Positions 39,288 to 58,264 of a DNA stretch of 64,000 nt are shown here, piece by piece. The stretch's first letter is position 1, and the number at the start of each line of letters is the position of its first letter. The notes under the pieces are model-generated. The model made no database searches. It saw only the letters and a program-made list of their open reading frames with translations, and had not been told where the DNA came from. The position numbers and the translations under genes were made by a program. The stretch is from Negativicutes bacterium. Lineage in GTDB: Bacteria > Bacillota > Negativicutes > UBA1444. Where the stretch lies: positions 32,001 to 96,000 of the forward strand of contig CAXXIN010000012.1 in the NCBI GenBank assembly GCA_963665275.2, written 5' to 3'.

Positions 39288-39968
39288 TCAGCTCCCCTCT
39301 TTTGCAAATCGAACCCAAATGGATGTCAGCACCCGAACCGGTTTTTGTCCCTGTGGTTGACGAGCTGGTTCGAACCTCCATCGCGACACATTTTCCCGGG
39401 CCGCTTCATCCAAAATCTTCGACCCACTCGAGCGACCGAGAACAATTTTGCCGACACTGCCATTTTCCAGCACTTCCACGCTCAGCAGCACGTCGCCTGT
39501 CAATGCGCCTCTTGCTGCTTCCGGAGCCAGCAGTGGCGGTCGTTCTTTGATCTTGGGCGGAATCAGTGCGAATCCACTTGACTCTCCTTCGATCGGGTCT
39601 AACGGTCTTTCAGAAGAATTCTGCGCACCTACAGGTCCAGTTGCAACCTCCGGTGTTTTGGGGGGTGGGACAGGTTTTTGCGAGGGGGTCCCCGTTGCAT
39701 CCGCCGGCGCCGCTTTGCTTTCCTGTCCCGGAACGGATAAATCCGACGGTGCCGGAGTTGACGCGGAACCTTGTTTTTGAGCAGGTTTATCGGGCGCCGG
39801 CTTCTCGGGAGTCGGCGCACTCCATGTCCATTCCACCTCAGGTTCGACGGTTGGCATCGGCGAGAACATCCACGTTCCCCAAAAAAGCACTCCGGCCAGA
39901 ACATGCAGACTCAGCGAAACTCCGAGTGCAATCCAAAAATCATGGGATGCCGCTCCCCTCCGTCTCAC
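39288..39968 (-). CDS. tonB: Energy transducer TonB
   Basis: N-terminal SLSLH TM, Pro-rich linker, SSG..ILD.AA...V..WRFEPA. Confidence 0.9.
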   Translation of the reverse strand: MRRRGAASHDFWIALGVSLSLHVLAGVLFWGTWMFSPMPTVEPEVEWTWSAPTPEKPAPDKPAQKQGSASTPAPSDLSVPGQESKAAPADATGTPSQKPVPPPKTPEVATGPVGAQNSSERPLDPIEGESSGFALIPPKIKERPPLLAPEAARGALTGDVLLSVEVLENGSVGKIVLGRSSGSKILDEAARENVSRWRFEPARQPQGQKPVRVLTSIWVRFAKEGS

Positions 39969-40372
39969 GGGACGAGGTCCACCGCAACGGTCAATCGCTG
40001 CACGCCGAGCCGGCGCAATAAGTCCAATACTTCAACTACCTTCCCGTAGGCAACGGCTCGGTCGGCCCGGAGCACAAACCGCGTTTCCCGATCTTGCACC
40101 ATTGCCGCACGAATCTGTGCTTCCAGTTCAACGACAGAAACGCCCTTTTCACCGAATTGGACGCTGCCGTCAGCCATCACCGTGATCGGCGCCGTCCGCT
40201 GCGCCTCGGCATCCGGTGCAGATGCCGCAGGCAATGTCACAGGCAGCACTTTCTGTTCCACCATGAACATCGTACTCATCATAAAAAACACCAGCAAAAA
40301 GAACATAATATCAATCATGGGAATGACCATCAACCGAGGATTTTCAGCAAATCTCCGCTCACGGATCTTCAC
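39965..40372 (-). CDS. exbD: Biopolymer transport protein ExbD
   Basis: IPMIDIMFFLLVFFM, LRADR..YG.VV. Confidence 0.93.
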   Translation of the reverse strand: MKIRERRFAENPRLMVIPMIDIMFFLLVFFMMSTMFMVEQKVLPVTLPAASAPDAEAQRTAPITVMADGSVQFGEKGVSVVELEAQIRAAMVQDRETRFVLRADRAVAYGKVVEVLDLLRRLGVQRLTVAVDLVP

Positions 40373-40983
40373 GATTCCCGCTCCTGGATCGCTGATAACA
40401 CAAGGGAGGCAACCTCTTCCACATCACCCAGCATCCGGTCGAGTCGATTTCGAAAATAGGACAGCAGAACAAGGGCCAGGATGGCCACGCACAGTCCTGC
40501 CGCCGTCGCAATCAACGCCTCACCGACTCCGCCCGTGATCGCGAAGGGCTGCCCGCTGCGAACGTTCAGCACATTAAAAGCACGAATCATGCCGATCACT
40601 GTTCCCAAAAGCCCCAATAGCGGCGCCAACGTCACCATCAGCCCCAGGATATCCAACCGTTGTCGCAACCTCGCCGCGCCGCGGTTGGCCACTCCTTCCA
40701 TCGCCATGTCCGCAGCGCGGCTGCCTCGCATGGCATTTTCAAGCCCTGCAGATGCAACCAGCGCAATCAACGACTCCGTTTCCCCCGCCTCCGTCAGTGC
40801 AGCCTTCCAATCACCCTGTTTCAAAAAAGGCTCCAGCCGTTCCTGTAAAAGAGCGCTGTTTGCATCCCCTCTATGAAAAGCGCGGAACCTATCAACAGCC
40901 ACCGCCACGGATAACACCGACCCCAGAAAAAGCAACGGCATCACAAGGCCGCCTTTTTCAAGCAATGCCCAGAATTCAGCCAT
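40369..40983 (-). CDS. exbB: Biopolymer transport protein ExbB (MotA/TolQ/ExbB)
   Basis: APLLGLLGTVIGMI, GVGEALIATAAGL. Confidence 0.93.
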   Translation of the reverse strand: MAEFWALLEKGGLVMPLLFLGSVLSVAVAVDRFRAFHRGDANSALLQERLEPFLKQGDWKAALTEAGETESLIALVASAGLENAMRGSRAADMAMEGVANRGAARLRQRLDILGLMVTLAPLLGLLGTVIGMIRAFNVLNVRSGQPFAITGGVGEALIATAAGLCVAILALVLLSYFRNRLDRMLGDVEEVASLVLSAIQERES

Positions 40984-40994
40984 CCTTACCTCCT

Positions 40995-41474
40995 TTATCG
41001 CCCTGCCGCAGGCAATATGAAAAATTGCCACACGGCAAAATCCTCGCATCCGTATGTCGCCACCCGGCCACGAATCATCGCCTGCCCGTCACCCAGGAAC
41101 ACCTTTCCTTCCAAGCTTACCATCCGGTAACTCGGATCCACAGGTTGGTCGATCCAGTTTTCCGGCTTCAGGAATAGGGCCCGCGTCGCCGGGTCCCACG
41201 TACCCGTCATCCGAAACGACCCGGTTGGCACCTGCGGATTATCCGGGTCCGCCGAGAAAGCGAATTCTGCTTCCATACGGCGTTCACCTCCGCCAGGCAA
41301 CGGCCGGAGCGTCAAGCGCAGTCGGGTCAACCCCTGATTGCATACATACGACCCATGCCAGGGCGCCGACAGCAGCAATGGCATCATATCCGTCGCCGCT
41401 TGCGCTTGGGGAGCAAAAGGGATGGATATCAGAAGAACGCCCAATAGGATCCCCAGCCAATACGTCCTGCTCAT
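40995..41474 (-). CDS. Secreted hypothetical protein
   Basis: Signal peptide ending AQA; WHGSYVCNQGLT motif; start overlaps the gloA stop. Confidence 0.7.
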   Translation of the reverse strand: MSRTYWLGILLGVLLISIPFAPQAQAATDMMPLLLSAPWHGSYVCNQGLTRLRLTLRPLPGGGERRMEAEFAFSADPDNPQVPTGSFRMTGTWDPATRALFLKPENWIDQPVDPSYRMVSLEGKVFLGDGQAMIRGRVATYGCEDFAVWQFFILPAAGR

Positions 41475-41918: not shown

Positions 41919-42587
41919 ATGAACCGGATTACCACCATCCCACTGGGATTCTCCAATGCCATCCTAGTCCAGGAATCAGGCACGATTCTCGTAGACACTG
42001 GCGCACCAGCCACGCAGCAAAAATATCAGGAAGTGTTCGCGAGTTTGCAGGTCAATCCGCAGGACATCCGACTGATCGTGATCACTCACGGCCACTCCGA
42101 CCATTTCGCCCACGCACGCGAACTACGTGAACTGACAGGTGCGCCCATATTGTGTCATCCAAAAGCTTTGCCCGCTTTGCGAACAGGCAAAAATCCACCC
42201 GTTCATCCGCGAAACGAACTGGGCGAGAGTGTCCTGAAAATGATTACCGGCAAAGAACCCCCTGCCATGCCGGTTGAACCGGACATTGTTATTGATTCGG
42301 ACTATGACCTGGCGTTCTTCGGCATAGCTGGCAAAATCATTTCCACGCCAGGACACAGCGACTGTTCCCTATCCGTACTCCTGGAGTCAGGGAATGCAAT
42401 CGTCGGCGACCTGGTCGTTTCCTCTCCTTTCAACCGCAAGGCAAGCATAGCCTATTTCGCAGACAACCCTGCCGCGCTCTTCGCCAGTGTCCGAAAGTTG
42501 CTCCCGTTTGCCCACACATTTTACAGCGGACATGGCGGCCCTTTTACGCGCGAGCAAGTGGAAACCGCGCTGCAGGAAAAAGGGTAA
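41919..42587 (+). CDS. MBL-fold metallo-hydrolase
   Basis: VDTG, THGHSDH, TPGHS, GD, GHG. Confidence 0.9.
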   Translation: MNRITTIPLGFSNAILVQESGTILVDTGAPATQQKYQEVFASLQVNPQDIRLIVITHGHSDHFAHARELRELTGAPILCHPKALPALRTGKNPPVHPRNELGESVLKMITGKEPPAMPVEPDIVIDSDYDLAFFGIAGKIISTPGHSDCSLSVLLESGNAIVGDLVVSSPFNRKASIAYFADNPAALFASVRKLLPFAHTFYSGHGGPFTREQVETALQEKG

Positions 42588-42640: not shown

Positions 42641-42669
42641 TAGACGTTGAAAATCATTTTTGTTATGAT
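42641..42669 (+). promoter_or_regulatory. SigmaA promoter of the PucR operon
   Basis: TAGACG-N17-TATGAT with extended -10 TG. Confidence 0.65.
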
Positions 42670-42803: not shown

Positions 42804-44015
42804 ATGGCTCTCAAATTGAAAGACCTTTTCGGGTTGCCCCAACTGAAGAACCTTAAACTGGTGGCCGGTTCCGCTGGTCTGGACCGCGCCCTTCACTGGG
42901 TTCATGTAGTGGAGCTGCCTGATGTCATGCATTGGACTCTGGGCGGCGAACTGCTTTTCATGACCGGTATCGGGATTCGGGACAACCTGGCAATCCTTTC
43001 ACGGATTGTCGAAGAATGCTCGCGCCGCAATATCGCCGGCCTGGTCCTTAACGTTGGTCCCTATATCCCAGCCACCCCGCCCGAGGTGATCGAATTGGCG
43101 GATGCGCTGGGGTTCCCTGTGTTCGAGCTGCCCTGGGAAGTGAAGTTAGTCGAAGTCACGCGGGAAATTTGCAACCATATCATGAACCAACAGGTCGAAG
43201 AAAAGTCGATCCAGGACATCATCGAAAACATCCTCTATGGCGACTGCTCCAATCCCGAGCTCCTATCAACCCGGGCCGCGCTATATGACTACGACCTCAC
43301 CAAACCCCATCGGGTGCTGTTTGTAAGATACAGCCGTGTTCTTCCTTCGAACAGACCTGATATGAATACCGAGCAGAAAGTTCTGGAAGACAAGCAAAAA
43401 ATCCAGCAAATCGTCCAGGATGCTTTTCGACGATCCGCAAAGAAAGTGCTGTTCACCAGCCGTTCCGACCGCATCGTCCTGTTGGTTCCCTCTGATGGCA
43501 GCATGCAGGAATCTCAACGTGTTGAGTCTATTGCGCATAGTATCCTGCAAACCGCCGCCGAGCAGATGAAAAACATCCAGATGCATATCGGGTGGGGAAA
43601 TCCTTTCGAAGCCCTGCAGGATGGCAAAAAAAGCATGGAACAGGCCGAACTGGCTCTGAAGGTGGGCATCACATCAGGCCGGAAAAAGTTTTTCGGCTAT
43701 GAATCACTCGGTTTTTACAAAGTGCTGTTCAACGTATCCAACCGCAAGGAACTGGAGACTTTTCGCTTGGAAGTTTTGGGCCCGCTGAATGACTACGACC
43801 AACGGCACAAAGGGGAACTGCTGCCGACCTTGACCGCCTATCTGGAAGACACCGAGAACCTGGCCCTCGTTGCCGAGCGGCTCCATATTCACCGCAACAC
43901 GCTCCGCTACCGGATGCAAAAAGTGGAAGAACTCACCGGACGCAACCTCAATGACACTCAGGACCGGATGCATCTGTATTTCGCAACGGTTGTCGACAAA
44001 TACCTCAGTTTATAG
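42804..44015 (+). CDS. PucR-family transcriptional regulator
   Basis: LVAGSAGLDR..WVHVVE N-terminal domain; HIHRNTLRYRMQK HTH. Confidence 0.93.
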   Translation: MALKLKDLFGLPQLKNLKLVAGSAGLDRALHWVHVVELPDVMHWTLGGELLFMTGIGIRDNLAILSRIVEECSRRNIAGLVLNVGPYIPATPPEVIELADALGFPVFELPWEVKLVEVTREICNHIMNQQVEEKSIQDIIENILYGDCSNPELLSTRAALYDYDLTKPHRVLFVRYSRVLPSNRPDMNTEQKVLEDKQKIQQIVQDAFRRSAKKVLFTSRSDRIVLLVPSDGSMQESQRVESIAHSILQTAAEQMKNIQMHIGWGNPFEALQDGKKSMEQAELALKVGITSGRKKFFGYESLGFYKVLFNVSNRKELETFRLEVLGPLNDYDQRHKGELLPTLTAYLEDTENLALVAERLHIHRNTLRYRMQKVEELTGRNLNDTQDRMHLYFATVVDKYLSL

Positions 44016-44034
44016 CAAGGAGCGAAGGCGATCC

Positions 44035-45255
44035 ATGGATACTAAAATCATTGACGCAGCAGCCAAACTAAAAGAAGAAATGTTCACTTTTGCCCAAAGA
44101 CTGATTCAGACGCCCAGCCTCAGTGGTGAGGAAAAAGCATTGGCCGAATTATGTGAGTCCGAGATGGTCCGCCTCGGCTATGACGAAGTTTTTATCGATG
44201 GTATCGGGAATGTTGTGGGAATCATCCGCGGCTCCGGTGATGGCTGCAACCTTATGTACAACTCCCATATGGATCACGTCGACCCTGGCAATGAAGCGCT
44301 TTGGGACTACCCGCCCTACGGCGCGGTAATGGCTGATGGGTATATTCACGGGCGCGCCGCCAGCGATGTCAAAGGAGGTCTCGCCGCCCAGATTTACGCC
44401 GGAGCCTTGCTGCGCCAGGCTGGAATTCCGCTGCGGGGCGATTACATCGTCACCGGCGTTGTTCAGGAAGAACCGGCGGAAATGCTGGGCATCCAGTACT
44501 TATGCGATAAAACGTTTCCTGCACATGGACTCCGTTTTGATCTGATGATCAGTTCCGAAGCTACCGGTCTGAATTTATTTCTGGGCCATCGCGGTCGTGT
44601 GGAACTGGAAGTCGTGACTGAAGGGCGCACCAGTCATGGTAGCGCTCCCTGGAGGGGCATCAATGCCGTAACTAAAATGCTGCCTGTGCTCGATCAGGTC
44701 AATCGCCTGGCCGAAAGTCTTCCCACTCACCCGATCCTTGGGCAGTCCACCCTCGCATTGACCAATATTACCTGCAGTCCCGGCCGATTGTCGATCATTC
44801 CGGATATTTGCACCGTTTCCCTCGACCGTCGATTGCTGCCGGAAGAAAGCTGCGAATTGGCATTGGCTCAAATCGAGGCCATCTTAACCGATCTCTCGGC
44901 AAAGGATCCCGAATTCAAGGCTCAGGTCCGCATCCGAACGGTTCGTGAAACTTCTTGGACCGGCGTATCGATGGACTGCGAGAAAAAAATGGCAGCCTGG
45001 ATAATCCGTCCCGATCATCCCCTGGTTATCGAAACGGTGAAAGCGCTCAACTCCATCGGCCAGACACCCGATTTCGGCAAATGGGATTTTGGCACCGATG
45101 CCAGCTATGTCACGGGCGTACTCGGCATCCCCACGATTGGCTATTCTCCTATGGAAGAACAGTATGCACATACGCCCCAGGACCGGGTCAGTACAGAAAT
45201 GATGCTCAAAGCTCTGGCAGGCAACGCAGCCATTGCCCGGCGCATCGCCGGATAA
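44035..45255 (+). CDS. M20/ArgE-DapE metallo-amidohydrolase, YgeY-like
   Basis: HMDHV, GRAASDVKGG, QEE, GHRGRVE, HGSAP..GINA, WDFGTD, YAH. Confidence 0.88.
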   Translation: MDTKIIDAAAKLKEEMFTFAQRLIQTPSLSGEEKALAELCESEMVRLGYDEVFIDGIGNVVGIIRGSGDGCNLMYNSHMDHVDPGNEALWDYPPYGAVMADGYIHGRAASDVKGGLAAQIYAGALLRQAGIPLRGDYIVTGVVQEEPAEMLGIQYLCDKTFPAHGLRFDLMISSEATGLNLFLGHRGRVELEVVTEGRTSHGSAPWRGINAVTKMLPVLDQVNRLAESLPTHPILGQSTLALTNITCSPGRLSIIPDICTVSLDRRLLPEESCELALAQIEAILTDLSAKDPEFKAQVRIRTVRETSWTGVSMDCEKKMAAWIIRPDHPLVIETVKALNSIGQTPDFGKWDFGTDASYVTGVLGIPTIGYSPMEEQYAHTPQDRVSTEMMLKALAGNAAIARRIAG

Positions 45256-45289
45256 CCGTCTGAAATTAAAATTACTGGAGGAGATCAAC

Positions 45290-46447
45290 ATGTCCATCGA
45301 TCTGTTTCAATCCCCTGAACGTCTTTTGTTCGGCTGGGGCAGCGTGGAAAAATCCGGGGAGGAAGCGTTGCGTTATGGAACCAAAGCAATGCTTGTCAGC
45401 GGCAAAACTTCTTCCCGCGCCAGCGGAGCGCTTGACGCGGTGTGCGCTTCCCTGAAATCGGCCGGTATCGCCGTGACGTTGTTTTGTGAAGCGGAATCCG
45501 ATCCCAGCGTCCGCACAATCACCGCCGGTACCGCGCTTGCCAGAGAAATCGGCGCCGAGGTGATCATCGCACTCGGCGGTGGCAGTCCTCTTGATGCCGG
45601 CAAAGCCATTGGCCTCATGGCCGCCAATGACGGCAACATCACCAACTATGAAAAAACTGCGCCAACGAAGCCCGGTCTACCGGTCATCGCCATCCCCACG
45701 ACCGCCGGTACCGGCAGTGAAGTGACAAAATTCGTTGTAATTACCGACACCGAACGAAAAGTGAAAATGTTGATCAGCACTCCTTTCCTAATCCCCAGAG
45801 TCGCGTTGCTCGACCCCCAGCTCACGCTGAGCATCCCGTCCGCTTACACAGCCGGACCGGGAATGGACGCACTGACCCATGCCATTGAAGCTTTTCAATC
45901 CAGCCTCGCTTCCCCCACCACCGATGTGTTTGCCCTCTCTGCCATCCGCCTGATCGGAGGCCATCTCGTCAAGGCAACCTTAAACGGCGCCAACATCGAG
46001 GCCCGCACCGCCATGTTGCTCGGTCAGATGCATGCCGGTCTTGCCTTCGGCAATGCTTCGGTAGCTCTCGTCCATGCCATGTCCCGACCGCTCGGCGCGC
46101 ACTTCGGCATTCCTCATGGTCAAGCCAATGCCATTTTGTTGCCTTGGGTCATGAAATACAACAGGCCTGCCTGCCCGGAAAAATTCGTCCGAATTGCCGA
46201 AGCTCTTGGCTGTGAGGTAAAGGGACTGTCGCTAAGAGAATCCAGTCAGCTCGCCGTGGATACCGTACGCGAAATTTATGCCGATACCGGGCTGCCGCTT
46301 ACACTCGCCGAACTCGGCGTTCCGGCAGACGCCTTGCCCCAGCTCGCCAAAGATGCGTCGCAAAGCGGCAGCGTGCTCTTTAATCCCCGCAAACCGACCT
46401 TAAGTGAAATCGAACAACTCTATCATTCATGCCTGAACGGCAAATAA
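45290..46447 (+). CDS. Iron-containing alcohol dehydrogenase (possible sulfoacetaldehyde or malonate-semialdehyde reductase)
   Basis: GGGSPLD, PTTAGTGSE, DALTHAIE, HAMS, PHG. Confidence 0.9.
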   Translation: MSIDLFQSPERLLFGWGSVEKSGEEALRYGTKAMLVSGKTSSRASGALDAVCASLKSAGIAVTLFCEAESDPSVRTITAGTALAREIGAEVIIALGGGSPLDAGKAIGLMAANDGNITNYEKTAPTKPGLPVIAIPTTAGTGSEVTKFVVITDTERKVKMLISTPFLIPRVALLDPQLTLSIPSAYTAGPGMDALTHAIEAFQSSLASPTTDVFALSAIRLIGGHLVKATLNGANIEARTAMLLGQMHAGLAFGNASVALVHAMSRPLGAHFGIPHGQANAILLPWVMKYNRPACPEKFVRIAEALGCEVKGLSLRESSQLAVDTVREIYADTGLPLTLAELGVPADALPQLAKDASQSGSVLFNPRKPTLSEIEQLYHSCLNGK

Positions 46448-46464
46448 GAAGGGAGCGAAGCCGT

Positions 46465-47847
46465 ATGACAACCCCAATCAACGTAGAAGAATTGATTGCC
46501 CAGGAAAAGGAACATCTCTGGCTCCATCTGACCAACCACAAAATGATGGAGACTCAGGAACCTCAAATCATGGTATCAGGCAATGGTTGCAACATCACGG
46601 ACGCCCGGGGCAACGAATACCTTGATATGCTCTCCGGCGGCGTATGGTGCGTCAATGTCGGCTATGGACGCGAATCGATGGTGCAGGCCGCTGCCGACCA
46701 GCTTCGCACCCTTCCCTACTATGCCGGGACAGTGGCTACCCCTCCCTACATCCATCTGGCAACCAAGCTCGCTTCCCTGCTGCCAGCGCTCCCCAAAGTC
46801 TACATTTCAAACAGTGGATCTGAAGCCAATGAAAAAGCGTTCAAAATGTCTCGCCTGTACTTCGGCGTCACCGAAACGCAAAAAGAGAAACATAAAATCA
46901 TTTACCGTGACCGGGATTATCATGGCAGCACCCTGGCGGTCCTCGCCGCCGGCGGACAAAAGGAAAGAAAGGCCGGTTACGGCCCTTATCCGGAAGGGTT
47001 CGTGGAAATCCCCCACGCATGCTGTTATCGCTGTCCGTTCGGCAAGGAATATCCGAACTGCGAGATCGACTGCGCCCGTGCTCTGGAAACAACCATTCTA
47101 AAGGAAGGTCCCGACACCGTGGCGGCGATCATTCTTGAACCAATCACTGCCGGTGGCGGCATCATACCGCCGGTTCCGGAGTATTTCCCGCTCATCCAGT
47201 CTATCTGCCGCAAATACGAGGTGCTCCTCATTATCGACGAAGTAGTCGCCGGGTTCGGGCGGACAGGGAAAATGTTCGGCCATGATCACTACGATGTGCA
47301 ACCTGATATGGTGACTCTCGCCAAAGGCATCGCAAGCTCCTACATGCCGCTCTCGGCTACGCTCGCCACCAAAGCGGTTTTTGACCGATTCCTGACCTCG
47401 CCGACCGATACCTTCGGTTATTTCCGTGACATCAGCACTTACGGCGGCTGCACTGCAGGCTGTAGTGTAGCACTGGAAAACATCCGCATCATCGAAGAAG
47501 AAAAGTTGGTTGAAAACAGCGCCGTGTTGGGCCGCTACCTGCTCGATCAACTGAAGCAGTTCGCCGATCACCCGATGGTTGGGGACATCCGCGGCCTGGG
47601 CCTGTTCGCCGGCATCGAGATCGTCGACGACAAAAAGACCAAAGCACCTTCCGCAGAAGGCACTTTGGCCGGCATCGTGGCTGATGTTAAAAAGCAGGGC
47701 ATTCTGATGGGACGGATGGGACGCAGCGTTCCTGGACTCAACAACGTTCTCACGCTCGCCCCTGCCCTCATCGTCACCAAAGAGCAGATCGACTCAACCG
47801 TCAAAGCGATCGGCGTTGCTCTGGGCAACCTGAAAGCTGCAAAATAG
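46465..47847 (+). CDS. tpa: Class III aminotransferase, taurine:pyruvate aminotransferase-like
   Basis: SGGVWCVNVGYGR, SNSGSEANEKAFK, RDYHG, YFRDISTYGGC, NNVLTLAPALI match the Tpa subfamily as recalled; substrate not proven. Confidence 0.75.
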   Translation: MTTPINVEELIAQEKEHLWLHLTNHKMMETQEPQIMVSGNGCNITDARGNEYLDMLSGGVWCVNVGYGRESMVQAAADQLRTLPYYAGTVATPPYIHLATKLASLLPALPKVYISNSGSEANEKAFKMSRLYFGVTETQKEKHKIIYRDRDYHGSTLAVLAAGGQKERKAGYGPYPEGFVEIPHACCYRCPFGKEYPNCEIDCARALETTILKEGPDTVAAIILEPITAGGGIIPPVPEYFPLIQSICRKYEVLLIIDEVVAGFGRTGKMFGHDHYDVQPDMVTLAKGIASSYMPLSATLATKAVFDRFLTSPTDTFGYFRDISTYGGCTAGCSVALENIRIIEEEKLVENSAVLGRYLLDQLKQFADHPMVGDIRGLGLFAGIEIVDDKKTKAPSAEGTLAGIVADVKKQGILMGRMGRSVPGLNNVLTLAPALIVTKEQIDSTVKAIGVALGNLKAAK

Positions 47848-47858
47848 TACGAACCGAC

Positions 47859-50800
47859 TTAGCCTGCGTCCGGTCTGGACAACTCAAGCAGCAAATCTCC
47901 GGATTCAATTGAGTCACCGGGTTTGACGAAAATTTCTTTCACGAAGCCATGAATGGGCGCCTGAATCGAGGTTTCCATCTTCATGGCTTCTGTTGCAACC
48001 AACGGGGTTCCTTTTTTTACCTTGGCGCCTGTTTGCACCATCACCTTGACAACAGAACCGGACATTGTCGCCGCCACGTGCTCCGGGTTAGCGGGGTCGG
48101 CTTTGCGGCGCTCGGCAACCGTGGTTTCCACGGCCTTGTCCTTGATCAACGTTTCCCGCACCGATCCATTCAACTCAAAACTGACTACCCTAACTCCGGC
48201 GGCATCAGGAGCACCAACGGACAGCAGCCGGATATTGAGCGTTTTTCCTTGCTGAATATCCACACTGATTTCTTCTCCCGGCAGCATGCCATAGAAGAAG
48301 GTTGGGGTATCCAGCATCGACATATCGCCATATTCCTGCATGAATCCGACCCATTCCTTGAATACCTTGGGATATAGGGCATAAGAAAGCACATCTTTTT
48401 CCGTCACATCACGGTGAGGAATTGCTCCGACGGCAACCCGCAGCGCGTCGAAATCAACCGGCGCCATCAGTTCGCCAGGCCGACAATCCAGAGGTTTTTT
48501 GCCCTTGAGGATGATTGCTTGCAGTTTTTCAGGGAAACCTTGATACGGTTGCCCGATCTGACCTTCAAAGAATTCGACCACCGACTGTGGGAAATTGAGC
48601 CGGTCTCCTTTGGCGTAAATGTCGTCTTCTGACAGACCATTCTCCACCATGAACAGGGCCATGTCGCCCACAACTTTGGACGAAGGAGTAACTTTCACGA
48701 TATCGCCGAACAGGTCGTTGACCCTGCGGTACATCTTTTTGACTTCTTCCCAACGCGGTTCCAGTCCCAGCGCCTTGGCCTGCTGTTTGAGATTGCTGTA
48801 TTGGCCGCCCGGCATCTCGTGCTCGTACACTTCCGGATTGGGAGAAAACAGTTTCGCGTCAAAGTCTGCGTAATAGGAACGAACATCTTCCCAGTAATGG
48901 GATAGCTCATTCAATCCCAGAATTTCGGCATCCGGTTGGCGTTTGTGACCCGAAAGGGCATAATAAAGACTGTTGGCGCTTGGCTGAGAGGTCATGCCTG
49001 CCAGCGAAGAAATCGATACATCCACGATATCCACGCCGGCATCAATCGCCCGCGCATACGTATAGACCCCGTTGCCGCTCGTGTCATGAGTATGAAGGTG
49101 AACCGGAATGTCGACCGCATCTTTGATCGCCGACACCAGCTGATAAGCCGCTTCCGGTTTCAAGAGGCCCGCCATGTCCTTGATGCCCAGAATATGAGCA
49201 CCGGCTGTTTCCATCTCTTTCGCCATGTTCACGTAATATTTCAGGTCATATTTGCTGCGATCAGGGTTTAGAATATCCCCTGTATAACATAGCGCCGCTT
49301 CCGCGACCTTGCCTGACTCGCGCACGGCCTCGATGGCGACTCGCATGCTGTCCAGCCAGTTCAGGCTGTCAAATATCCGAAATACATCGATCCCGGCTGC
49401 AGCGGACTCAGCCACAAAATTTCTTACCACATTGTCGGGATAATTCGTGTACCCTACGGCATTGGCGGAGCGCAGCAGCATCTGGAACAAAATATTGGGG
49501 GATTTTTTCCGCAGGACGGCCAGCCGCTCCCACGGATCTTCATGCAAGAACCGGTAGGCTACGTCAAAAGTGGCGCCGCCCCACATTTCCAGGGAAAACA
49601 GCTGGGGCATCAGACTCGAGGTAGGCTCGATAATATCGATGATATCCCTTGAACGGACACGGGTGGCCAGCAAGGACTGATGCGCATCACGCAACGTCGT
49701 ATCTGTCAGCAGCACCTTGTCTTGCGCTTTGATCCAGGAAATCAATCCACCGACGCCGCGTTCATCCAAAATCTGCTTGGTACCGGACGGAGCCTCTCCC
49801 ACCGGCACTTCCGGCATGCGTGGCGTTTGATAGGCCGTCTTTTCCTTGCGTGAAATTCCTTCGTAGCCATTGACAGTGATGTTCCCCAGATATTTGAGCA
49901 ACTTGGTCGCCCGGTCTTTACGGTCAGGAAAAACGAATAATTCCGGCGAACTGTCGACAAAAGAAGTATCATAGGAACCTTGCAGAAATTTTTCATGCCC
50001 CACCACGTTGGCCAAAAAAGGAATATTGGTCTTGACTCCGCGAATGCGGAACTCTCCGAGGCACCGCTGCATCTTGGCGATGGCTGCTTTGCGGGTCAGG
50101 CCCCAAGTCATGGCCTTCACCAGCAGCGAATCGTAATAGGGCGTGATCACCGAGCCAGTGAAAGCATTACTGCCGTCCAGACGCAGACCGAACCCGCCGC
50201 CGCTGCGGTAGGTGGTCAGTTTCCCGGTGTCCGGCAGGAAGTTGTTGGCAGGATCTTCTGTGGTCACCCTGCACTGGATGGCATGTCCGTAGCAGTGGAT
50301 GAGCTCCTGGGCCGGGATCCCGATCTCATCGCCGTGCAGGGCATACCCATCGGCGATGAGCAGCTGCGACTGAACGATATCTATGCCTGTGACCATTTCC
50401 GTGATGGTATGCTCCACCTGGACGCGGGGGTTGACCTCAATGAAATAGAATTGATGCTCCGGCGTCACCAGGAATTCCACCGTTCCGGCATTTACGTACC
50501 CAACGTTTTGCATCAGCCGGACAGCGGCCTGGCAGATATCCAGCCTCAGCGAATCAGGCAGCGCGGCCGGCGCGACTTCCACCAATTTCTGATGGCGTCG
50601 CTGAACCGAACAGTCCCGCTCATAAAGATGAACGATGTTGCCGTATTGGTCTCCCAGTATCTGCACTTCAATATGTCGGGGGTTCTCCAGAAGTTTTTCC
50701 AGGTATACCTCATCGCTGCCAAACGAAGCTTTCGCTTCGGATCGTGCTTGGTTGTAGAGACCTTCCAGCGATTCGGCGTCGCGTACAACCCGCATGCCGC

Positions 50801-51305
50801 GACCGCCGCCGCCCAAAACCGCCTTGATCATGATCGGGAACCCATGCCTGGACGTGAAGTCCCTGACTTCTTCCAGGCTGGCAACAGGTCCGTCAGTTCC
50901 CGGAATCATCGGGATTCCGGCGTTTTTCGCCTGGATCCGGGCATTGATTTTATCACCGAACATGGTCAAATGACGCAGCTCAGGCCCGATAAAAATCAGG
51001 TTTTCTTCTGCACAGCGTTTGGCCAGCTGCGCATTTTCGGCGAGAAAACCATATCCGGGGTGAATGGCGTCCACATTATTTTCTTTCGCAATTTTCAGGA
51101 TTCCTTCAATGTCCAGATACGCCTCAATGGGGCCCTTCCCCTCGCCGATCAGATAGGTTTCGTCCGCTTTGTAACGATGCAGGGACAAAACATCCTCCTG
51201 CGAATAAATAGCCACGGTTCGAATCCCCAGCTCGGTGCAGGCCCGAAAGACACGTATGGCTATTTCGCCGCGATTCGCAACCAACACCGTTTTAATTCTG
51301 TTCAT
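47859..51305 (-). CDS. pyc: Pyruvate carboxylase
   Basis: ANRGEIA, RDCSVQRRHQK, RDAHQSL, KDMAG, HTHD, biotin motif EAMKM; 1148 aa. Confidence 0.98.
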   Translation of the reverse strand: MNRIKTVLVANRGEIAIRVFRACTELGIRTVAIYSQEDVLSLHRYKADETYLIGEGKGPIEAYLDIEGILKIAKENNVDAIHPGYGFLAENAQLAKRCAEENLIFIGPELRHLTMFGDKINARIQAKNAGIPMIPGTDGPVASLEEVRDFTSRHGFPIMIKAVLGGGGRGMRVVRDAESLEGLYNQARSEAKASFGSDEVYLEKLLENPRHIEVQILGDQYGNIVHLYERDCSVQRRHQKLVEVAPAALPDSLRLDICQAAVRLMQNVGYVNAGTVEFLVTPEHQFYFIEVNPRVQVEHTITEMVTGIDIVQSQLLIADGYALHGDEIGIPAQELIHCYGHAIQCRVTTEDPANNFLPDTGKLTTYRSGGGFGLRLDGSNAFTGSVITPYYDSLLVKAMTWGLTRKAAIAKMQRCLGEFRIRGVKTNIPFLANVVGHEKFLQGSYDTSFVDSSPELFVFPDRKDRATKLLKYLGNITVNGYEGISRKEKTAYQTPRMPEVPVGEAPSGTKQILDERGVGGLISWIKAQDKVLLTDTTLRDAHQSLLATRVRSRDIIDIIEPTSSLMPQLFSLEMWGGATFDVAYRFLHEDPWERLAVLRKKSPNILFQMLLRSANAVGYTNYPDNVVRNFVAESAAAGIDVFRIFDSLNWLDSMRVAIEAVRESGKVAEAALCYTGDILNPDRSKYDLKYYVNMAKEMETAGAHILGIKDMAGLLKPEAAYQLVSAIKDAVDIPVHLHTHDTSGNGVYTYARAIDAGVDIVDVSISSLAGMTSQPSANSLYYALSGHKRQPDAEILGLNELSHYWEDVRSYYADFDAKLFSPNPEVYEHEMPGGQYSNLKQQAKALGLEPRWEEVKKMYRRVNDLFGDIVKVTPSSKVVGDMALFMVENGLSEDDIYAKGDRLNFPQSVVEFFEGQIGQPYQGFPEKLQAIILKGKKPLDCRPGELMAPVDFDALRVAVGAIPHRDVTEKDVLSYALYPKVFKEWVGFMQEYGDMSMLDTPTFFYGMLPGEEISVDIQQGKTLNIRLLSVGAPDAAGVRVVSFELNGSVRETLIKDKAVETTVAERRKADPANPEHVAATMSGSVVKVMVQTGAKVKKGTPLVATEAMKMETSIQAPIHGFVKEIFVKPGDSIESGDLLLELSRPDAG

Positions 51306-51669: not shown

Positions 51670-51713
51670 AAAAAATGCCTGGTATGGGTTTTTTCCCTAC
51701 CAGGCATTTTTTT
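51670..51713 (-). terminator. Intrinsic terminator of the urt-amidase-M20 operon
   Basis: AAAAAATGCCTGGTA...TACCAGGCATTTTTT. Confidence 0.82.
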
Positions 51714-51725
51714 GCTCTATTATTT

Positions 51726-53030
51726 TTACTCCAGCTTGAAATCTTCCTGCGGCACTTTCCCCAATTCCAGAAATATCGCCGCATATCCGGCAATCGCTTT
51801 TCCCATGTAATCAGTGCGGACTTTATCAATCGGCCGATGGCAGTAAAACTCCTGCATGGGAGAATAACCGATAGCCGGTTTCTGGTCGCGCCCGCAGATA
51901 ACGGAAAGGTCAGTGCCGAAATCCCAGTAGCCGTATTTGACCGGCTGGTCGACCTGAGTCAGGCCCGACGCTGCCGCCTTGACGAAGGGATGGGACGAGT
52001 CAATCTTCCAGGGCTGCTTCACGTTCGGGATCGTGGCCGATTGGCCGGTATAGGAAGTCCGGGGCACGGCCGCGATCTCCACCTTCGCCCGGAAATCTTT
52101 ATCGCTGGCCGCCAATTCGTCAATAACGCTCTGGATTTGTTTCACGCAATCCTCAGCCGATTCACCCGGAACCATCCGCCGATCATAAGTGATATGGCAA
52201 CGGTCCGGCACGATGCACATCGCCCCCGGCGTACAGCTGATGATCGTCAGGGCGATGCTCGATTTGCCGAGCTGCGGATCCTCAAGCGCGTTCGCCGCCA
52301 CGACCTGTTCCACCCGGTCAATGAAGGCTGTCGCTTTGTTCACTGCATTGACGCCGAGCCACGGCGCGCTGCCGTGCGAGGTCACGCCTTCGATCGTCAC
52401 CAGCAGTTCGACCCGCCCCCGATGCCCCAGATAGAGTTTGAGCGAAGTCGCTTCGCAGGAAACAACGCCGTCATAGTCCAGCCCCCGGCCTGGCAAAGTT
52501 TCATCAATCAGTTTGATCATGCCGAGCTGTTCGGCTGGTTCTTCCAATACGACGCCCGTAAACATGTAATTGCCGTAGAGATCCTGACCCTGCTCCCGCA
52601 GCTTCAGCAGCAAGGCTCCAGCGTAAACCTGACAGGCTCCGCCGCCTTTCACATCGGAGGCGGCCCGGCCATGAATGACTTCAACCTGCTCCGTCCCGGT
52701 GCGGTCCTGATTCTCCATCTCATCGATATCGAGGGCTGCGCCGTAGGGGTCATAACCCAACCATTCGGAGTGATCGCCTGGCGCCACATGATCCAGATGG
52801 GCATTGTACATGATCGTCGGGCCCGGTTGGTTCCCCCGGACAATCCCCACGACACTGCCCCATTCATCCCGGAACACTTCGTCATAGCCAAGCTTCTCCA
52901 TCTCGGCCAGATACAGATCCGCTACGCCCTTTTCCTCACCCGGCAACGCCGGTACCCTGATCAGCCGGCGACAAAACTCCACTGCCGCCGGTTTCAGCTC
53001 GGCGGCAAGTTTATTCAACTCACTCGACAT
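51726..53030 (-). CDS. M20 metallo-amidohydrolase, YgeY-like (paralogue of 44035-45255)
   Basis: HLDHV, GRAASDVKGG, EEPAE, GHRGRVE, HGSAPW.G.NA, WDFGTD, IGYSPM. Confidence 0.88.
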   Translation of the reverse strand: MSSELNKLAAELKPAAVEFCRRLIRVPALPGEEKGVADLYLAEMEKLGYDEVFRDEWGSVVGIVRGNQPGPTIMYNAHLDHVAPGDHSEWLGYDPYGAALDIDEMENQDRTGTEQVEVIHGRAASDVKGGGACQVYAGALLLKLREQGQDLYGNYMFTGVVLEEPAEQLGMIKLIDETLPGRGLDYDGVVSCEATSLKLYLGHRGRVELLVTIEGVTSHGSAPWLGVNAVNKATAFIDRVEQVVAANALEDPQLGKSSIALTIISCTPGAMCIVPDRCHITYDRRMVPGESAEDCVKQIQSVIDELAASDKDFRAKVEIAAVPRTSYTGQSATIPNVKQPWKIDSSHPFVKAAASGLTQVDQPVKYGYWDFGTDLSVICGRDQKPAIGYSPMQEFYCHRPIDKVRTDYMGKAIAGYAAIFLELGKVPQEDFKLE

Positions 53031-53043
53031 GGTTATCCCTCCG

Positions 53044-53247
53044 TTACTTGGTCGGCGGTTTCAGTGAAAATACCGATGCGGGCGCCAGCTCCGCCGGAAA
53101 CTCTTGCGCCGCCGCGCGCACCGCCGCCAATAATCCCGCCACTTCTTTCGCATATTGGGGAAGGTGTGCGTCAATCGCAGGGTTCACCGTTCGACCGGAT
53201 AGCTCGACTGTCATGCTGCGCAGTGTACTTACTTCCACAATCCACAC
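53044..53247 (-). CDS. Small protein, possible AtzG/HpxX/GatC-like amidase partner
   Basis: About 65 aa filling the amidase-M20 gap; ends PAELAPASVF; start codon uncertain. Confidence 0.6.
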   Translation of the reverse strand: MWIVEVSTLRSMTVELSGRTVNPAIDAHLPQYAKEVAGLLAAVRAAAQEFPAELAPASVFSLKPPTK

Positions 53248-54653
53248 TTCCTCTCGCTGATTTCCGGGTGCGCCTGTTCATAGGCATAAGCCACTTGAAA
53301 CACTTGATTTTCCGCAAACGGTTTCCCCTGAATCTGAAACCCGATCGGCAAGTCCCCGGCAGCAAATCCGCACGGCAGCGACAGCACCGGGTGCCCGTTG
53401 AAATCGCCAAGGGAGGTCAAAAACATCAGTACCGCATTCACACGGGGATCTACCGCGTCGTTGCCGAACATCACCGTTTTTTCACCGATGGGGAAAGCCG
53501 GCATAATGACGGTGGGCGACAAGAACACATCAATCTCCTGATAAACCTCCGCCCAGATCTGTCGGTCCTTGTTGCGCAGCCGTTGCGCGTTGACATAAGC
53601 CGACGCTGGCAGGTACTGGCCCTTCTCGAGTCGATATCGGATACTGGGGCCGTATTTCTCGCCGCAGTTCTCCAAATTCTGTTCGTGGTAAGCATAGGCT
53701 TCCGCCATCGTGAGAACGCTGCCGATATTGAACGCATCCCTGTTTGGATAAGACAGTTCCTTCAAAACAGCGCCATTAGCCTCGAACCATTGGAGTACCT
53801 GTAAAAAAGCCTGCTCGACTTCCGGTTGCAGCAAACCCTCATAATAACGCGGGCAAATTCCAACTCGCAGACCTTTGACGCCGGGATTATTTTGATCCAG
53901 CCCAACCGTATAATCCTGGGCGGCTACATTAGCAGATCCCGCATCGATTTCATCATAGCCAGCCATGACATTCAGTACGGCAGCGGCATCCCATACGGAC
54001 TGCGCCAGCGGTCCGGCGTGGTCCATCGACCAGCTCAGGGGAATGATCCCCCGCTTGCTCACCCGGCCATACGTCGGTTTGATGCCGACCACGCCGCAGA
54101 AGGAAGCAGGAATCCTTATCGACCCGCCGGTATCCGTTCCCAGCGAAAAAACCGAACTGGCGGCAGCCACCGATGCCGCCGATCCCCCGCTGGAGCCGCC
54201 GGTTACCATGCGGGAATCCCACGGGTTGCGACAGGGACCGAAGTGGTCATTCTCACTGGTCGTGCCATAGGCGAATTCATGCAGGTTGTTTTTGCCGACC
54301 AGAATGGCCCCGGCTTCTTCCATCCCTTCAATCACGGCAGCATTCGAATCCGGTATGTTGTCGGCCAGAATCGCCGATCCCGCCGTTGTCCGCACGCCCC
54401 GAGTCATATACAGATCTTTGGCTGAGTACGGGATTCCATGTAGCGGGCCGCGGTAACGCCCCTGCAGGATTTCTTTTTCCGCCTGCGCCGCTTTTTGCAG
54501 CGCCGGCTCAGCTGTCACCGTAATATAAGCGTTAAGTACGGGTTCAGTTGCTTCGATGCGTTGCAGACATTCCCGGGTCAGCTCCACCGGCGATATTGTT
54601 TTTGCTTGCAGCAGCGGCGCCAATTCCCGGATAGATTTTTGCATTAGCGACAT
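53229..54653 (-). CDS. Amidase-signature family enzyme (GatA/AtzE-like)
   Basis: GPLHGIP...KD, GGSSGGS, GTDTGGSIRIPAS. Confidence 0.93.
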   Translation of the reverse strand: MSLMQKSIRELAPLLQAKTISPVELTRECLQRIEATEPVLNAYITVTAEPALQKAAQAEKEILQGRYRGPLHGIPYSAKDLYMTRGVRTTAGSAILADNIPDSNAAVIEGMEEAGAILVGKNNLHEFAYGTTSENDHFGPCRNPWDSRMVTGGSSGGSAASVAAASSVFSLGTDTGGSIRIPASFCGVVGIKPTYGRVSKRGIIPLSWSMDHAGPLAQSVWDAAAVLNVMAGYDEIDAGSANVAAQDYTVGLDQNNPGVKGLRVGICPRYYEGLLQPEVEQAFLQVLQWFEANGAVLKELSYPNRDAFNIGSVLTMAEAYAYHEQNLENCGEKYGPSIRYRLEKGQYLPASAYVNAQRLRNKDRQIWAEVYQEIDVFLSPTVIMPAFPIGEKTVMFGNDAVDPRVNAVLMFLTSLGDFNGHPVLSLPCGFAAGDLPIGFQIQGKPFAENQVFQVAYAYEQAHPEISERKCGLWK

Positions 54654-54693
54654 GTCATCGGCTCCTTCCACGGTATTGATCCATTCGACTTAA

Positions 54694-55389
54694 TTATACC
54701 GTAAGATACCGATGAATGACTTCATCCGACAATTCTTCCGTTGCTCCGCAAGCAACAATTTCGCCTTTTTGTATCACAATGAAGCGATCCGCCAGTTTCT
54801 TGGCAAACTTCAGATTTTGTTCCACGATCACGATCGGAATCTGCATCGCCTTGTGGATGCGTTTCAAAATATTGCCGATCTCCGCCACCACATTCGGTTG
54901 AATTCCTTCGGTCGGTTCATCCAAAAGCAATGTTTTCGGATGGCTCATCAGCGCGCGGGCGATGGCCAGCTGTTGCTGCTGCCCGCCGGAGAGCACGCCG
55001 CCCTTGCGGTGCAGATGTTCAGGCAGGATCGGAAAATAGTCGAATACTTCCTCCATCCGTTCTTTGACCTCGCTCGTGTGCGCCAGGGCGCCAAGTTCCA
55101 GATTTTCTTTGACAGTCAGATTGGGAATGATCTCTCGTCCCTGCGGCACATAGGCAATCCCGCTGCAGGCCCGTTCGTAGGCTTTCATCTTCGTCAGGTT
55201 GACACTGCCGAGACTGATAGACCCCGTCTGCATCGGCAACAGTCCAATCATGCTTTTGAGCAGAGTCGTCTTGCCAACGCCATTGCGGCCGAGAATCGCC
55301 AGTTTCTCCGTGGAATCGACAGCGAAAGAGACTTTGTTCACGATACGGCTTTTGCCGTAACTGACCGAAACCGCGTTCACTTCCAGCAT
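54694..55389 (-). CDS. urtE: Urea/amide ABC ATPase UrtE
   Basis: GRNGVGKTT, YVPQGREI, LSGGQQQQLAI, DEPTEGIQP. Confidence 0.92.
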   Translation of the reverse strand: MLEVNAVSVSYGKSRIVNKVSFAVDSTEKLAILGRNGVGKTTLLKSMIGLLPMQTGSISLGSVNLTKMKAYERACSGIAYVPQGREIIPNLTVKENLELGALAHTSEVKERMEEVFDYFPILPEHLHRKGGVLSGGQQQQLAIARALMSHPKTLLLDEPTEGIQPNVVAEIGNILKRIHKAMQIPIVIVEQNLKFAKKLADRFIVIQKGEIVACGATEELSDEVIHRYLTV

Positions 55390-55390
55390 A

Positions 55391-56143
55391 TTAAGCCACT
55401 TCCTCGTCATCATCTTTCAGATACACTTGCACCACTTTGGGGTTGCGCTTGACCTCGGCAAAGGTTCCCTCCGCCAATACTTTTCCCTGATGCAGCACGG
55501 TCACGGTTTCCGCGATCTGCTCGACAAAATCGATATCATGTTCCACCACGATGACGGTCTTGTCCTTCATCATAGTCTTGATCATTTCGCCGGTTTTATA
55601 GGTTTCATCAGCGGTCATTCCTGCTGTGGGCTCGTCCAGTGTGATCAGTTGGGGCTTCTGGGCAATGACCATGCCCATCTCGAGCCACTGTCGCTCGCCG
55701 TGTGACAGGGAGGTGGAAATCACATCCCGTTTGCCGTATAAATTGATCTGTTCCAGAATTGTTTTGATTTCATCGGCAATCGATTTGTTCTTGCGGTAGA
55801 GAAAGGTCTTCAGGACACTACTGTGCCCTGCCAGCGCCACTTCAACGTTTTCATACACACTGAGAAAATCAAACAGATTGGGCCCCTGAAATTTGCGTCC
55901 CACTTTATATTTCCCGGCAATTTCATGCGGGCTGCAACCAGTGATATCCGCTCCGCCGAGAAATACTTTACCGCTCGTCGGTGCTGTTTTGCCTGTGATC
56001 ATATCGATAATGGTAGTTTTTCCTGCGCCGTTTGGCCCAATGACTACCCGGGTTTCGCCTTTTTCCACTGATAGGGAAACCCGATCCACCGCCAGAAATC
56101 CGCTGAAACTCACGCTCACATCCCGCAATTCCAAGAAAGCCAT
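55391..56143 (-). CDS. urtD: Urea/amide ABC ATPase UrtD
   Basis: GPNGAGKTT, GRKFQ, LSHGERQWLE. Confidence 0.92.
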   Translation of the reverse strand: MAFLELRDVSVSFSGFLAVDRVSLSVEKGETRVVIGPNGAGKTTIIDMITGKTAPTSGKVFLGGADITGCSPHEIAGKYKVGRKFQGPNLFDFLSVYENVEVALAGHSSVLKTFLYRKNKSIADEIKTILEQINLYGKRDVISTSLSHGERQWLEMGMVIAQKPQLITLDEPTAGMTADETYKTGEMIKTMMKDKTVIVVEHDIDFVEQIAETVTVLHQGKVLAEGTFAEVKRNPKVVQVYLKDDDEEVA

Positions 56144-56146
56144 TCC

Positions 56147-58116: not shown

Positions 58117-58264
58117 GCACCGATCACTCCCCTACCCTTGATTCATTGTGGCTAAAAGCATTAATGCGCCTGCCAAAAGCTATCATTAAACTTTTGGCAA
58201 GCGCACTTCGTCGTGTCAGATTATCCTATTCGTTTGTAAAAAACCGCTAATTGATTCGAAGAGC

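Follow-up and report, generated by a model that had tools for sequence, protein, structure and literature searches.

The 64-kb window analysed here, the whole stretch of DNA presented above, comes from a Negativicutes genome and carries a compact operon (42804-47847, + strand) that may serve to harvest nitrogen from beta-ureido acids. According to the open reading frame (ORF) listing, it consists of four co-directional genes, which encode a PucR-family regulator (42804-44015, +), a YgeY-like M20 metallohydrolase of 406 residues (44035-45255, +; W1 below), an iron-type alcohol dehydrogenase of 385 residues (45290-46447, +; Fe-ADH) and a class-III aminotransferase of 460 residues (46465-47847, +). 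The gaps between them are 19, 34 and 17 bp, and a sequence scan revealed no terminator-like site between the four genes on the + strand. Translation of the regulator starts at ATG 42804, with GAAAGGGG just upstream. A sigma-70-like promoter candidate precedes this gene at 42641-42669 (+; TAGACG-17-TATGAT with an extended TG, 9 of 12 consensus matches); it is weak evidence, since it is a consensus match only and the scanned region holds eight such sites where 4.6 +/- 2.3 are expected. The base composition of the stretch is unremarkable. An earlier sequence-only reading had called the same four genes, and its coordinates agree exactly with ours. Pfam also confirmed each family: the regulator has an N-terminal PucR domain (123.1 bits), a GGDEF-like middle (GGDEF_2, 67.9 bits) and a C-terminal HTH_30 domain (74.7 bits), all above the gathering scores; W1 matches Peptidase_M20 and M20_dimer; the dehydrogenase matches Fe-ADH (178 bits) and ADH_Fe_C (186 bits); and the aminotransferase matches Aminotran_3 (317 bits).

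The assignment of the M20 protein to the YgeY family, as a ureidohydrolase-type enzyme, also held. W1 passes the NCBIfam YgeY model NF009555 (359.3 bits, cut-off 321) and stays below the cut-off of a second one, TIGR03526 (298.6 against 321.5), and its close relatives carry the public name 'YgeY family selenium metabolism-linked hydrolase'. W1 and E. coli YgeY share 35% identity. The M20 tree, like the aminotransferase tree described below, was a quick IQ-TREE search whose support values are SH-like approximate likelihood ratio tests (SH-aLRT) only. Among its 58 rows, W1 falls in a clade of 37 (SH-aLRT 98), and in 26 of these 37 rows the same locus encodes PydA and/or PydB of pyrimidine degradation, whereas E. 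coli YgeY and the M20 proteins that stand beside YgeX or YgeW homologues belong to other clades. H78, D80, D111, E145, E146, E175, H201 and H379 are invariant in an alignment of W1 and its relatives (A1). Across 26 Pyd-linked M20 proteins 132 columns are at least 90% conserved, and W1 retains 110 of them; it also has 24 clade-specific residues that the Pyd-linked proteins conserve and the YgeY group lacks. Ten of the 132 columns are changed in all four M20 proteins from the genus. Five of these ten, at W1 positions 54, 86, 172, 251 and 386, are likewise variable among outside relatives, whether Pyd-linked or not; the remaining changes are mostly conservative.

An extended reductive pyrimidine pathway, PydA-PydE, was reportedly described by Yin et al. 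in 2019 (J Biol Chem) from Bacillus smithii and Clostridia. To compare neighbourhoods, we fetched 78 loci, one genome per species, with an alignment of 16 M20 relatives as the query, and tallied the 32 in which the M20 protein is at least 46% identical to W1 over at least 300 residues. For foreign loci we called ORFs with a simple rule that takes the longest frame, and applied fixed tblastn thresholds to score the neighbours. The genomes searched are samples of their groups and those of one genus are not independent, and two loci (L028 and L042) stayed outside the final tally, their M20 match being split or just under the threshold. A dihydropyrimidine dehydrogenase-like gene (PydA; DHO_dh plus 4Fe-4S), a dihydropyrimidinase gene (PydB) or both were found in 22 of the 32 loci. 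A class-III aminotransferase was present in 23, a PucR regulator in 15, an Fe-ADH in 12 and an NCS1 pyrimidine-type permease in 10, while L007, L013, L025 and L032 had none of these neighbours. M20, aminotransferase and Fe-ADH occur together in 12 of the 32 loci, 11 of which also carry PydA/PydB; the exception (L009) belongs to the window's own genus. In Clostridia the genes usually follow the order PucR - aminotransferase - Fe-ADH - M20 (sometimes two) - dihydropyrimidinase - dihydropyrimidine dehydrogenase - NitT/TauT-type ABC transporter. The Pyd clusters L012, L020 and L014 contain no carbamoylase candidate other than the M20 protein. The closest relatives of W1 outside the genus (64-65% identical, L003-L005) lie in PucR - NCS1 - PydA - PydB - M20 clusters, which continue with an aldehyde:ferredoxin oxidoreductase or a CoA-acylating (methyl)malonate-semialdehyde dehydrogenase (MMSDH) and an aminotransferase. 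In these clusters PydB passes the dihydropyrimidinase model TIGR02033 (584 > 393) and PydA passes the PreA model (476 > 335). Consistently, the closest relative of the regulator outside the genus, 44% identical, sits in the Pyd cluster of L004. The combination of hydrolase, aminotransferase and dehydrogenase, which the sequence-only reading did not know as a described pathway, thus corresponds to the PydC/PydD/PydE part of the Pyd pathway.

Two features of these clusters concern the M20 proteins themselves. Clostridial Pyd clusters often have two tandem YgeY-like M20 genes whose products are 46-53% identical (L019 5162-7769, L020 6689-9224, L026 6690-9242, and L042); they might form a heteromer, or serve one each for the ureido acids derived from uracil and thymine. 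Some clusters encode a two-subunit NAD(P)H-type PydA (Pyr_redox_2 plus Fer4_20, then DHO_dh plus Fer4), as at 9306-11971 of L014, and others have a single ferredoxin-type PydAc. Both kinds of PydA thus stand beside YgeY-like M20 proteins, so the M20 clade is not bound to one kind of reductase.

Two reports describe how E. coli YgeY converts ureido-aminopropionate to 2,3-diaminopropionate by taking off its ureido group (PMC12507026; bioRxiv 2025.04.24.650524). The same chemistry on beta-ureidopropionate gives beta-alanine, and W1 is therefore read, from its clade and context, as a putative PydC-type beta-ureido acid amidohydrolase. In the Fig. 1C legend of PMC7332683, PydC is the ureidopropionase, PydD the beta-alanine aminotransferase and PydE a metal-dependent malonic semialdehyde reductase; the portion of that article's text available to us leaves the family of PydC unnamed, and our literature search returned no work pairing YgeY with ureidopropion*. 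Like E. coli YgeY, W1 has the M20 (ArgE/DapE-like) fold, passes NF009555 and would take a carbamoyl group off a ureido acid; unlike W1, E. coli YgeY has YgeW, YgeX, HyuA and SsnA as neighbours. The classical beta-ureidopropionases and L-carbamoylases (TIGR01879) would catalyse the same reaction as W1 and share its superfamily, but they form a different M20 subfamily from the ArgE/DapE/YgeY-like group, to which W1 belongs.

The score of W1 on NF009555, the public names of its relatives and a regulator of the purine-catabolism (PucR) family would also agree with another assignment, in which W1 is the true YgeY, an albizziin-type ureido-aminopropionate hydrolase in reductive uric acid degradation, with the operon taking part in purine breakdown. 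We searched the uric acid cluster of E. coli, taken from the K-12 record, against the genome of the window. A true YgeY orthologue lies elsewhere (G000:C16:318809-320086; L086 10810-12087): it is 66% identical to E. coli YgeY, scores 650.5 bits on NF009555 and 685.6 on TIGR03526, and in the M20 tree falls outside the clade of W1. This gene is apart from the other uricolytic genes, next to an amino-acid ABC transporter and a gene for a GGDEF sensor. A further YgeY-like M20 gene (NF009555 432.9) was found beyond the window on the same contig (G000:C12:140047-145502; L087 4048-9503), between a PALP gene and an Amidohydro_3 gene followed by a second PALP gene, an arrangement similar to the lower uric acid module of the C. 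difficile type (UacY, YgeY, YgeX). YgeX, YgeW/UacY, HyuA, SsnA and Xdh are all absent from the window, their homologues being on C6, C3 and the distal part of C12, and according to PMC12507026 the enzyme that acts on 2,3-diaminopropionate is a lyase, rather than an aminotransferase paired with a dehydrogenase. Given the low identity of W1 to YgeY, its separate clade and the missing partner genes, we rejected this assignment as highly improbable.

The nearest relatives of the Fe-ADH outside the genus also come from Pyd clusters, those of Desulfovibrionaceae. A sample of 400 Bacillota genomes contained no orthologue more than 49% identical; the matches there were generic alcohol dehydrogenases, many of them beside genes for aldehyde:ferredoxin oxidoreductases. 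Among 121 Desulfovibrionaceae genomes there were seven matches at E <= 1e-100, five of them 58-61% and two 50-52% identical. Three of the five (58-59%) lie inside PydB - M20 - PydD-type aminotransferase - Fe-ADH - PydA clusters; around the two more distant matches, Pyd genes were absent within 8 kb. The protein scores far below every named NCBIfam equivalog, including the SarD model NF050025 (253.6 bits against a cut-off of 700). These data favour, if not strongly, a PydE-like role as a malonic semialdehyde reductase.

The aminotransferase and its counterpart in the Pyd clusters differ in ancestry. The PydD-type enzyme of L005 shares 36% identity with it and scores 532 bits on the PRK06062-type model NF004718, where the window protein scores 281; the window protein instead passes NF005812 (495.5 > 488), and automatic JGI names call its close relatives 'taurine-pyruvate aminotransferase'. 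Among the 400 Bacillota genomes, 25 besides our own had a match at E <= 1e-100, with 14 places 56-66% identical, and we examined the neighbours at 12 of those 14 places, from 11 genomes. In six of the 11, the orthologue (59-63% identical) stands beside an alanine dehydrogenase and a thiamine pyrophosphate (TPP) enzyme; the three TPP enzymes scanned all pass the sulfoacetaldehyde acetyltransferase (Xsc) model TIGR03457 (814-840 > 676). The remaining neighbours include a CoA-acylating MMSDH in two cases (TIGR01722, 560-567 > 448.5), an Fe-ADH in one and an alanine dehydrogenase alone in two. The tree unites the 12 outside places with the genus sequences in a single 20-row clade (SH-aLRT 95), with PydD-type enzymes as the outgroup, and Xsc-linked and MMSDH-linked members interleave within it. 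Therefore, membership in this clade, which holds both taurine-type and beta-alanine-type members, cannot decide the substrate of the window enzyme, although its MMSDH-linked members point to a beta-alanine-type one. The label 'Tpa-like' given by the sequence-only reading thus has the support of gene context and stands at the level of the clade, which we call the Tpa / beta-alanine:pyruvate clade, and does not extend to taurine as the only kind of substrate.

The Xsc-linked orthologues raise the possibility of a taurine route, in which W1 would free taurine from N-carbamoyltaurine or another N-acyl taurine, the aminotransferase would convert taurine to sulfoacetaldehyde, and the Fe-ADH would reduce this to isethionate for excretion. 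Known taurine routes run through Tpa-Ald-Xsc or, in Bilophila and Bifidobacterium, through Tpa-SarD/TauF. The operon resembles them in having an aminotransferase whose clade includes Xsc- and Ald-linked genes and, potentially, in a transamination followed by aldehyde reduction by an Fe-ADH. In its favour are the replacement of the PydD-type enzyme of true Pyd clusters, the lack of linked PydA and PydB, and the occurrence of N-carbamyltaurine in mammalian tissue, as named once in the standards section of bioRxiv 2024.11.13.623458. The window genome has no Xsc (its best Xsc-like match is 28% identical), so that reduction and excretion would be the sole fate of sulfoacetaldehyde. Yet the Fe-ADH also stays below the SarD cut-off and is 42% identical to the only Fe-ADH found beside a Tpa-clade aminotransferase (L126); among partners for sulfoacetaldehyde, no search was made for IslAB. 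The locus has no sulfonate transporter or sulfonate-related gene, and a single paper in the literature we searched mentions N-carbamoyltaurine. We know of no described taurine route that includes an M20 ureidohydrolase. With the nearest outside relatives of W1, Fe-ADH and PucR all in Pyd clusters and MMSDH-linked loci interleaved in the aminotransferase clade, we consider the taurine route distinctly unlikely. Were it true, the locus would be a route for N-carbamoyl-taurine-like compounds, for which, to our knowledge, no pathway is known.

The reading we favour, with about even confidence, leads from beta-ureidopropionate through beta-alanine and malonic semialdehyde to 3-hydroxypropionate, the purpose being to harvest nitrogen. 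In this model PucR would control, probably as an activator, a nitrogen-scavenging operon assembled from the lower Pyd enzymes. W1 would hydrolyse beta-ureidopropionate, and probably also beta-ureidoisobutyrate, the former to beta-alanine, CO2 and NH3; the aminotransferase would pass the beta-amino group to pyruvate, its presumed acceptor, to give L-alanine and malonic semialdehyde; and either of the two alanine dehydrogenases encoded in the genome (64%) could then free the nitrogen as ammonia. The Fe-ADH would meanwhile reduce the reactive malonic semialdehyde to 3-hydroxypropionate. The operon itself lacks PydA and PydB; its substrate would have to be made by a cluster elsewhere in the genome or be taken up by the cell. 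The chemistry that the sequence-only reading had proposed (hydrolysis of a ureido or N-acyl compound, transamination, aldehyde reduction and nitrogen harvest) is thus retained as the best reading. Its list of substrates is narrowed to favour beta-ureidopropionate, the aminotransferase clade being the one element that speaks for taurine. Most likely, then, the operon represents a modified form of a known pathway rather than a new pathway. It shares with the Pyd pathway the same three predicted lower steps, a PucR regulator, which is often attached there too, and the nearest outside relatives of its M20 and Fe-ADH; it differs from it as a lower module without PydA and PydB, with an aminotransferase of the Tpa / beta-alanine:pyruvate clade in place of PydD, and with parts that have been gained or lost within one genus.

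Several observations weigh against a pathway from beta-ureidopropionate. PydA and PydB (DHO_dh and dihydropyrimidinase) genes are absent from the 64-kb window, and the four-gene operon contains no transporter gene. The aminotransferase, judged by its sequence relationships, is not of the PydD type but replaces it, and six of the 11 outside genomes have its orthologue linked to Xsc. Two of the five closer Desulfovibrionaceae Fe-ADH orthologues (60-61% identical) occur in unrelated contexts. At Pyd-conserved positions of the M20 protein, S178G, Y182F, I219L, I244N and Y308W are changes confined to the genus clade, and our literature search found no assay of any enzyme in the M20 clade of W1. Elsewhere in the genome a DHO_dh-like reductase is paired with a cyclic amidohydrolase at three places, on C6, C17 and C3, and none of these pairs is clearly the upper part of a Pyd pathway: the first is of the uric acid type, the second combines an allantoinase-like enzyme with a carbamoylase of its own, and the third has an Xdh/SsnA context. 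The carbamoylase on C17 means that W1 is not obviously needed. Finally, W1 and Fe-ADH are each missing from three of eight genomes of the genus, so that the set of three enzymes is not obligatory.

This last point emerged from the same-genus loci. Among 60 relatives, W1 orthologues (76-84% identical) were found only in 4 of the 11 other genomes of the genus, and proteins from other families of the class are at most 38% identical. A gene for a metallo-beta-lactamase (MBL)-fold hydrolase of 222 residues (41919-42587, +; Pfam Lactamase_B 82.9 bits) precedes PucR in the window and in all seven other same-genus loci with sequence there (L002/L161, L009, L160, L162, L163 and L164); it was not seen in the Pyd clusters of other taxa among the loci compared. 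In eight genus genomes, the order MBL - PucR - W1 - Fe-ADH - aminotransferase is found in the window, G410/L009 and G403; G401 and G406 lack Fe-ADH, G405 and G408 lack W1, and G409 has only MBL - PucR - aminotransferase. Regulator and aminotransferase, present in 8/8, are hence the constant part, while M20 and dehydrogenase (5/8 each) are optional within the genus. The expectation that the M20 gene would be co-conserved with the other two genes was therefore borne out across phyla but not within the genus.

Downstream of the operon, a convergent pyruvate carboxylase gene (pyc, 47859-51305, -) separates it from a second convergent operon, whose last gene encodes another M20 protein of the Pyd clade, W2 (51726-53030, -; 434 residues; Pfam M20 and M20_dimer). 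W2 is 48% identical to W1 and scores 291 on NF009555, below the cut-off of 321. In the tree it joins (SH-aLRT 100) the upstream member of the M20 tandems found in L019, L020 and L026, which are Clostridial Pyd clusters. A 709-residue open frame at 51675-53804 (+), antisense to the W2 and amidase genes and without a Pfam match, is very probably a spurious shadow ORF. Upstream of W2 in the second operon is a gene for an amidase-signature enzyme (53229-54671, -; Pfam Amidase 378 bits) that resembles AtzE (NF006631 379.9, cut-off 461) and adjoins W2 in six same-genus loci. Members of the AtzE-like family act on terminal amides of urea derivatives. The operon also encodes a Urt-like ABC transporter (54694-59461, -; Pfam ABC_tran and BPD_transp_2, two matches each, and Peripla_BP_5, 393 bits), made up of ATPases at 54694-55413 and 55391-56143, permeases at 56147-57259 and 57256-58116, and a binding protein at 58265-59461, all on the - strand; the binding protein scores 359.3 on the UrtA model TIGR03407, below the cut-off of 492.75. 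Transporter, amidase and W2 retain their synteny in L162, L163 and L164.

The constancy of PucR and aminotransferase and the proximity of the W2 operon suggest a different division of labour, in which PucR and the aminotransferase, with or without the dehydrogenase, would be a stable unit acting on free beta-alanine or taurine, while W1, W2, the amidase and the Urt-like transporter would dismantle some other imported ureide or amide and deliver its amine product to the aminotransferase. The two operons are syntenic across the genus. In G405 and G408 the W2 operon and the aminotransferase gene meet tail to tail with nothing in between; in G409 an efflux pump is inserted, yet they stay within 4.5 kb of each other, and in the window and L009 pyc alone parts them. 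The binding protein of the W2 operon is of the UrtA/AmiC type yet below the urea cut-off, and its amidase is AtzE-like. Adjacency inside one genus, on the other hand, may reflect shared ancestry only, and among the loci compared none outside the genus joins a Urt-like system to these M20 proteins. Moreover, the closest outside relatives of W2 are again found in Pyd clusters, and no substrate candidate can be named, so that we regard this arrangement as unlikely. A bolder version would unite the Urt-like transporter, AtzE-like amidase, W1, W2, Tpa-clade aminotransferase and Fe-ADH in a single scavenging system for an imported N-carbamoylated beta-amino sulfonate or carboxylate, a compound with an origin other than pyrimidine breakdown in the same cell. 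Such a pathway, for example from N-carbamoyltaurine through taurine and sulfoacetaldehyde to isethionate, would be undescribed so far and would have arisen by adapting enzymes of the PydC and PydE types and adding a taurine aminotransferase; we hold this to be improbable.

The M20 neighbourhoods have consequences beyond this locus. A large clade named 'YgeY family selenium metabolism-linked hydrolase' sits in pyrimidine-degradation clusters of Clostridia, Desulfotomaculia-like Bacillota and Desulfovibrionaceae, where the YgeY-like M20 protein is the sole candidate for the ureidopropionase step. These Pyd-linked proteins are no marker of uric acid degradation, and surveys that apply loose thresholds for YgeY could over-call uricolysis. 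Under the pathway from beta-ureidopropionate favoured here, the lower Pyd module can stand alone and exchange its parts, PydD giving way to a taurine-type aminotransferase that probably depends on pyruvate, and both dehydrogenase and M20 hydrolase being optional; its rebuilding in this genus is useful for understanding how nitrogen-scavenging modules change.

The three reductase-amidohydrolase pairs lie in distinct surroundings. That on C6 (G000:C6:64137-74925; L088) is part of a uric-acid-type cluster, which also encodes SsnA and Xdh; the reductase is UacX-like and the hydantoinase HyuA-like. Matches of this hydantoinase to its model fall in three frames (71506-72495, 72464-72652 and 72603-72845), which indicates frameshifts or assembly errors. 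The C3 pair stands beside Xdh and SsnA-like genes. The C17 cluster (G000:C17:185705-191206; L085 9706-15207) encodes an NMT1-type binding protein similar to those of Clostridial Pyd clusters, a 207-residue protein, a PreA-like DHO_dh/4Fe-4S reductase (PreA 425 > 335), an amidohydrolase, a TIGR01879 carbamoylase (280 > 204) and a PrpF-like isomerase. Its amidohydrolase is best described as allantoinase-like (TIGR03178 328 < 358; TIGR02033 232 < 393). This cluster may represent a pyrimidine, orotate or hydantoin-type route, and it is possibly the best candidate for an upstream supplier of beta-alanine or a beta-ureido acid to the operon in the window.

Two further observations concern other parts of the genome. 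On the same contig as the last cluster, G000:C17:178722-182196 (L085 2723-6197) holds a defence island like those of cyclic-oligonucleotide-based antiphage signalling systems (CBASS), with a SMODS/DncV-like nucleotidyltransferase, an AGS_C sensor, a patatin-like phospholipase and a second SMODS gene. In the window itself there are TonB, ExbD and ExbB genes at 39288-41049 (-), which, together with the names of the closest database proteins, assign the organism to the Negativicutes/Sporomusaceae; in a genome of the Bacillota, these genes are consistent with the outer membrane of Negativicutes.

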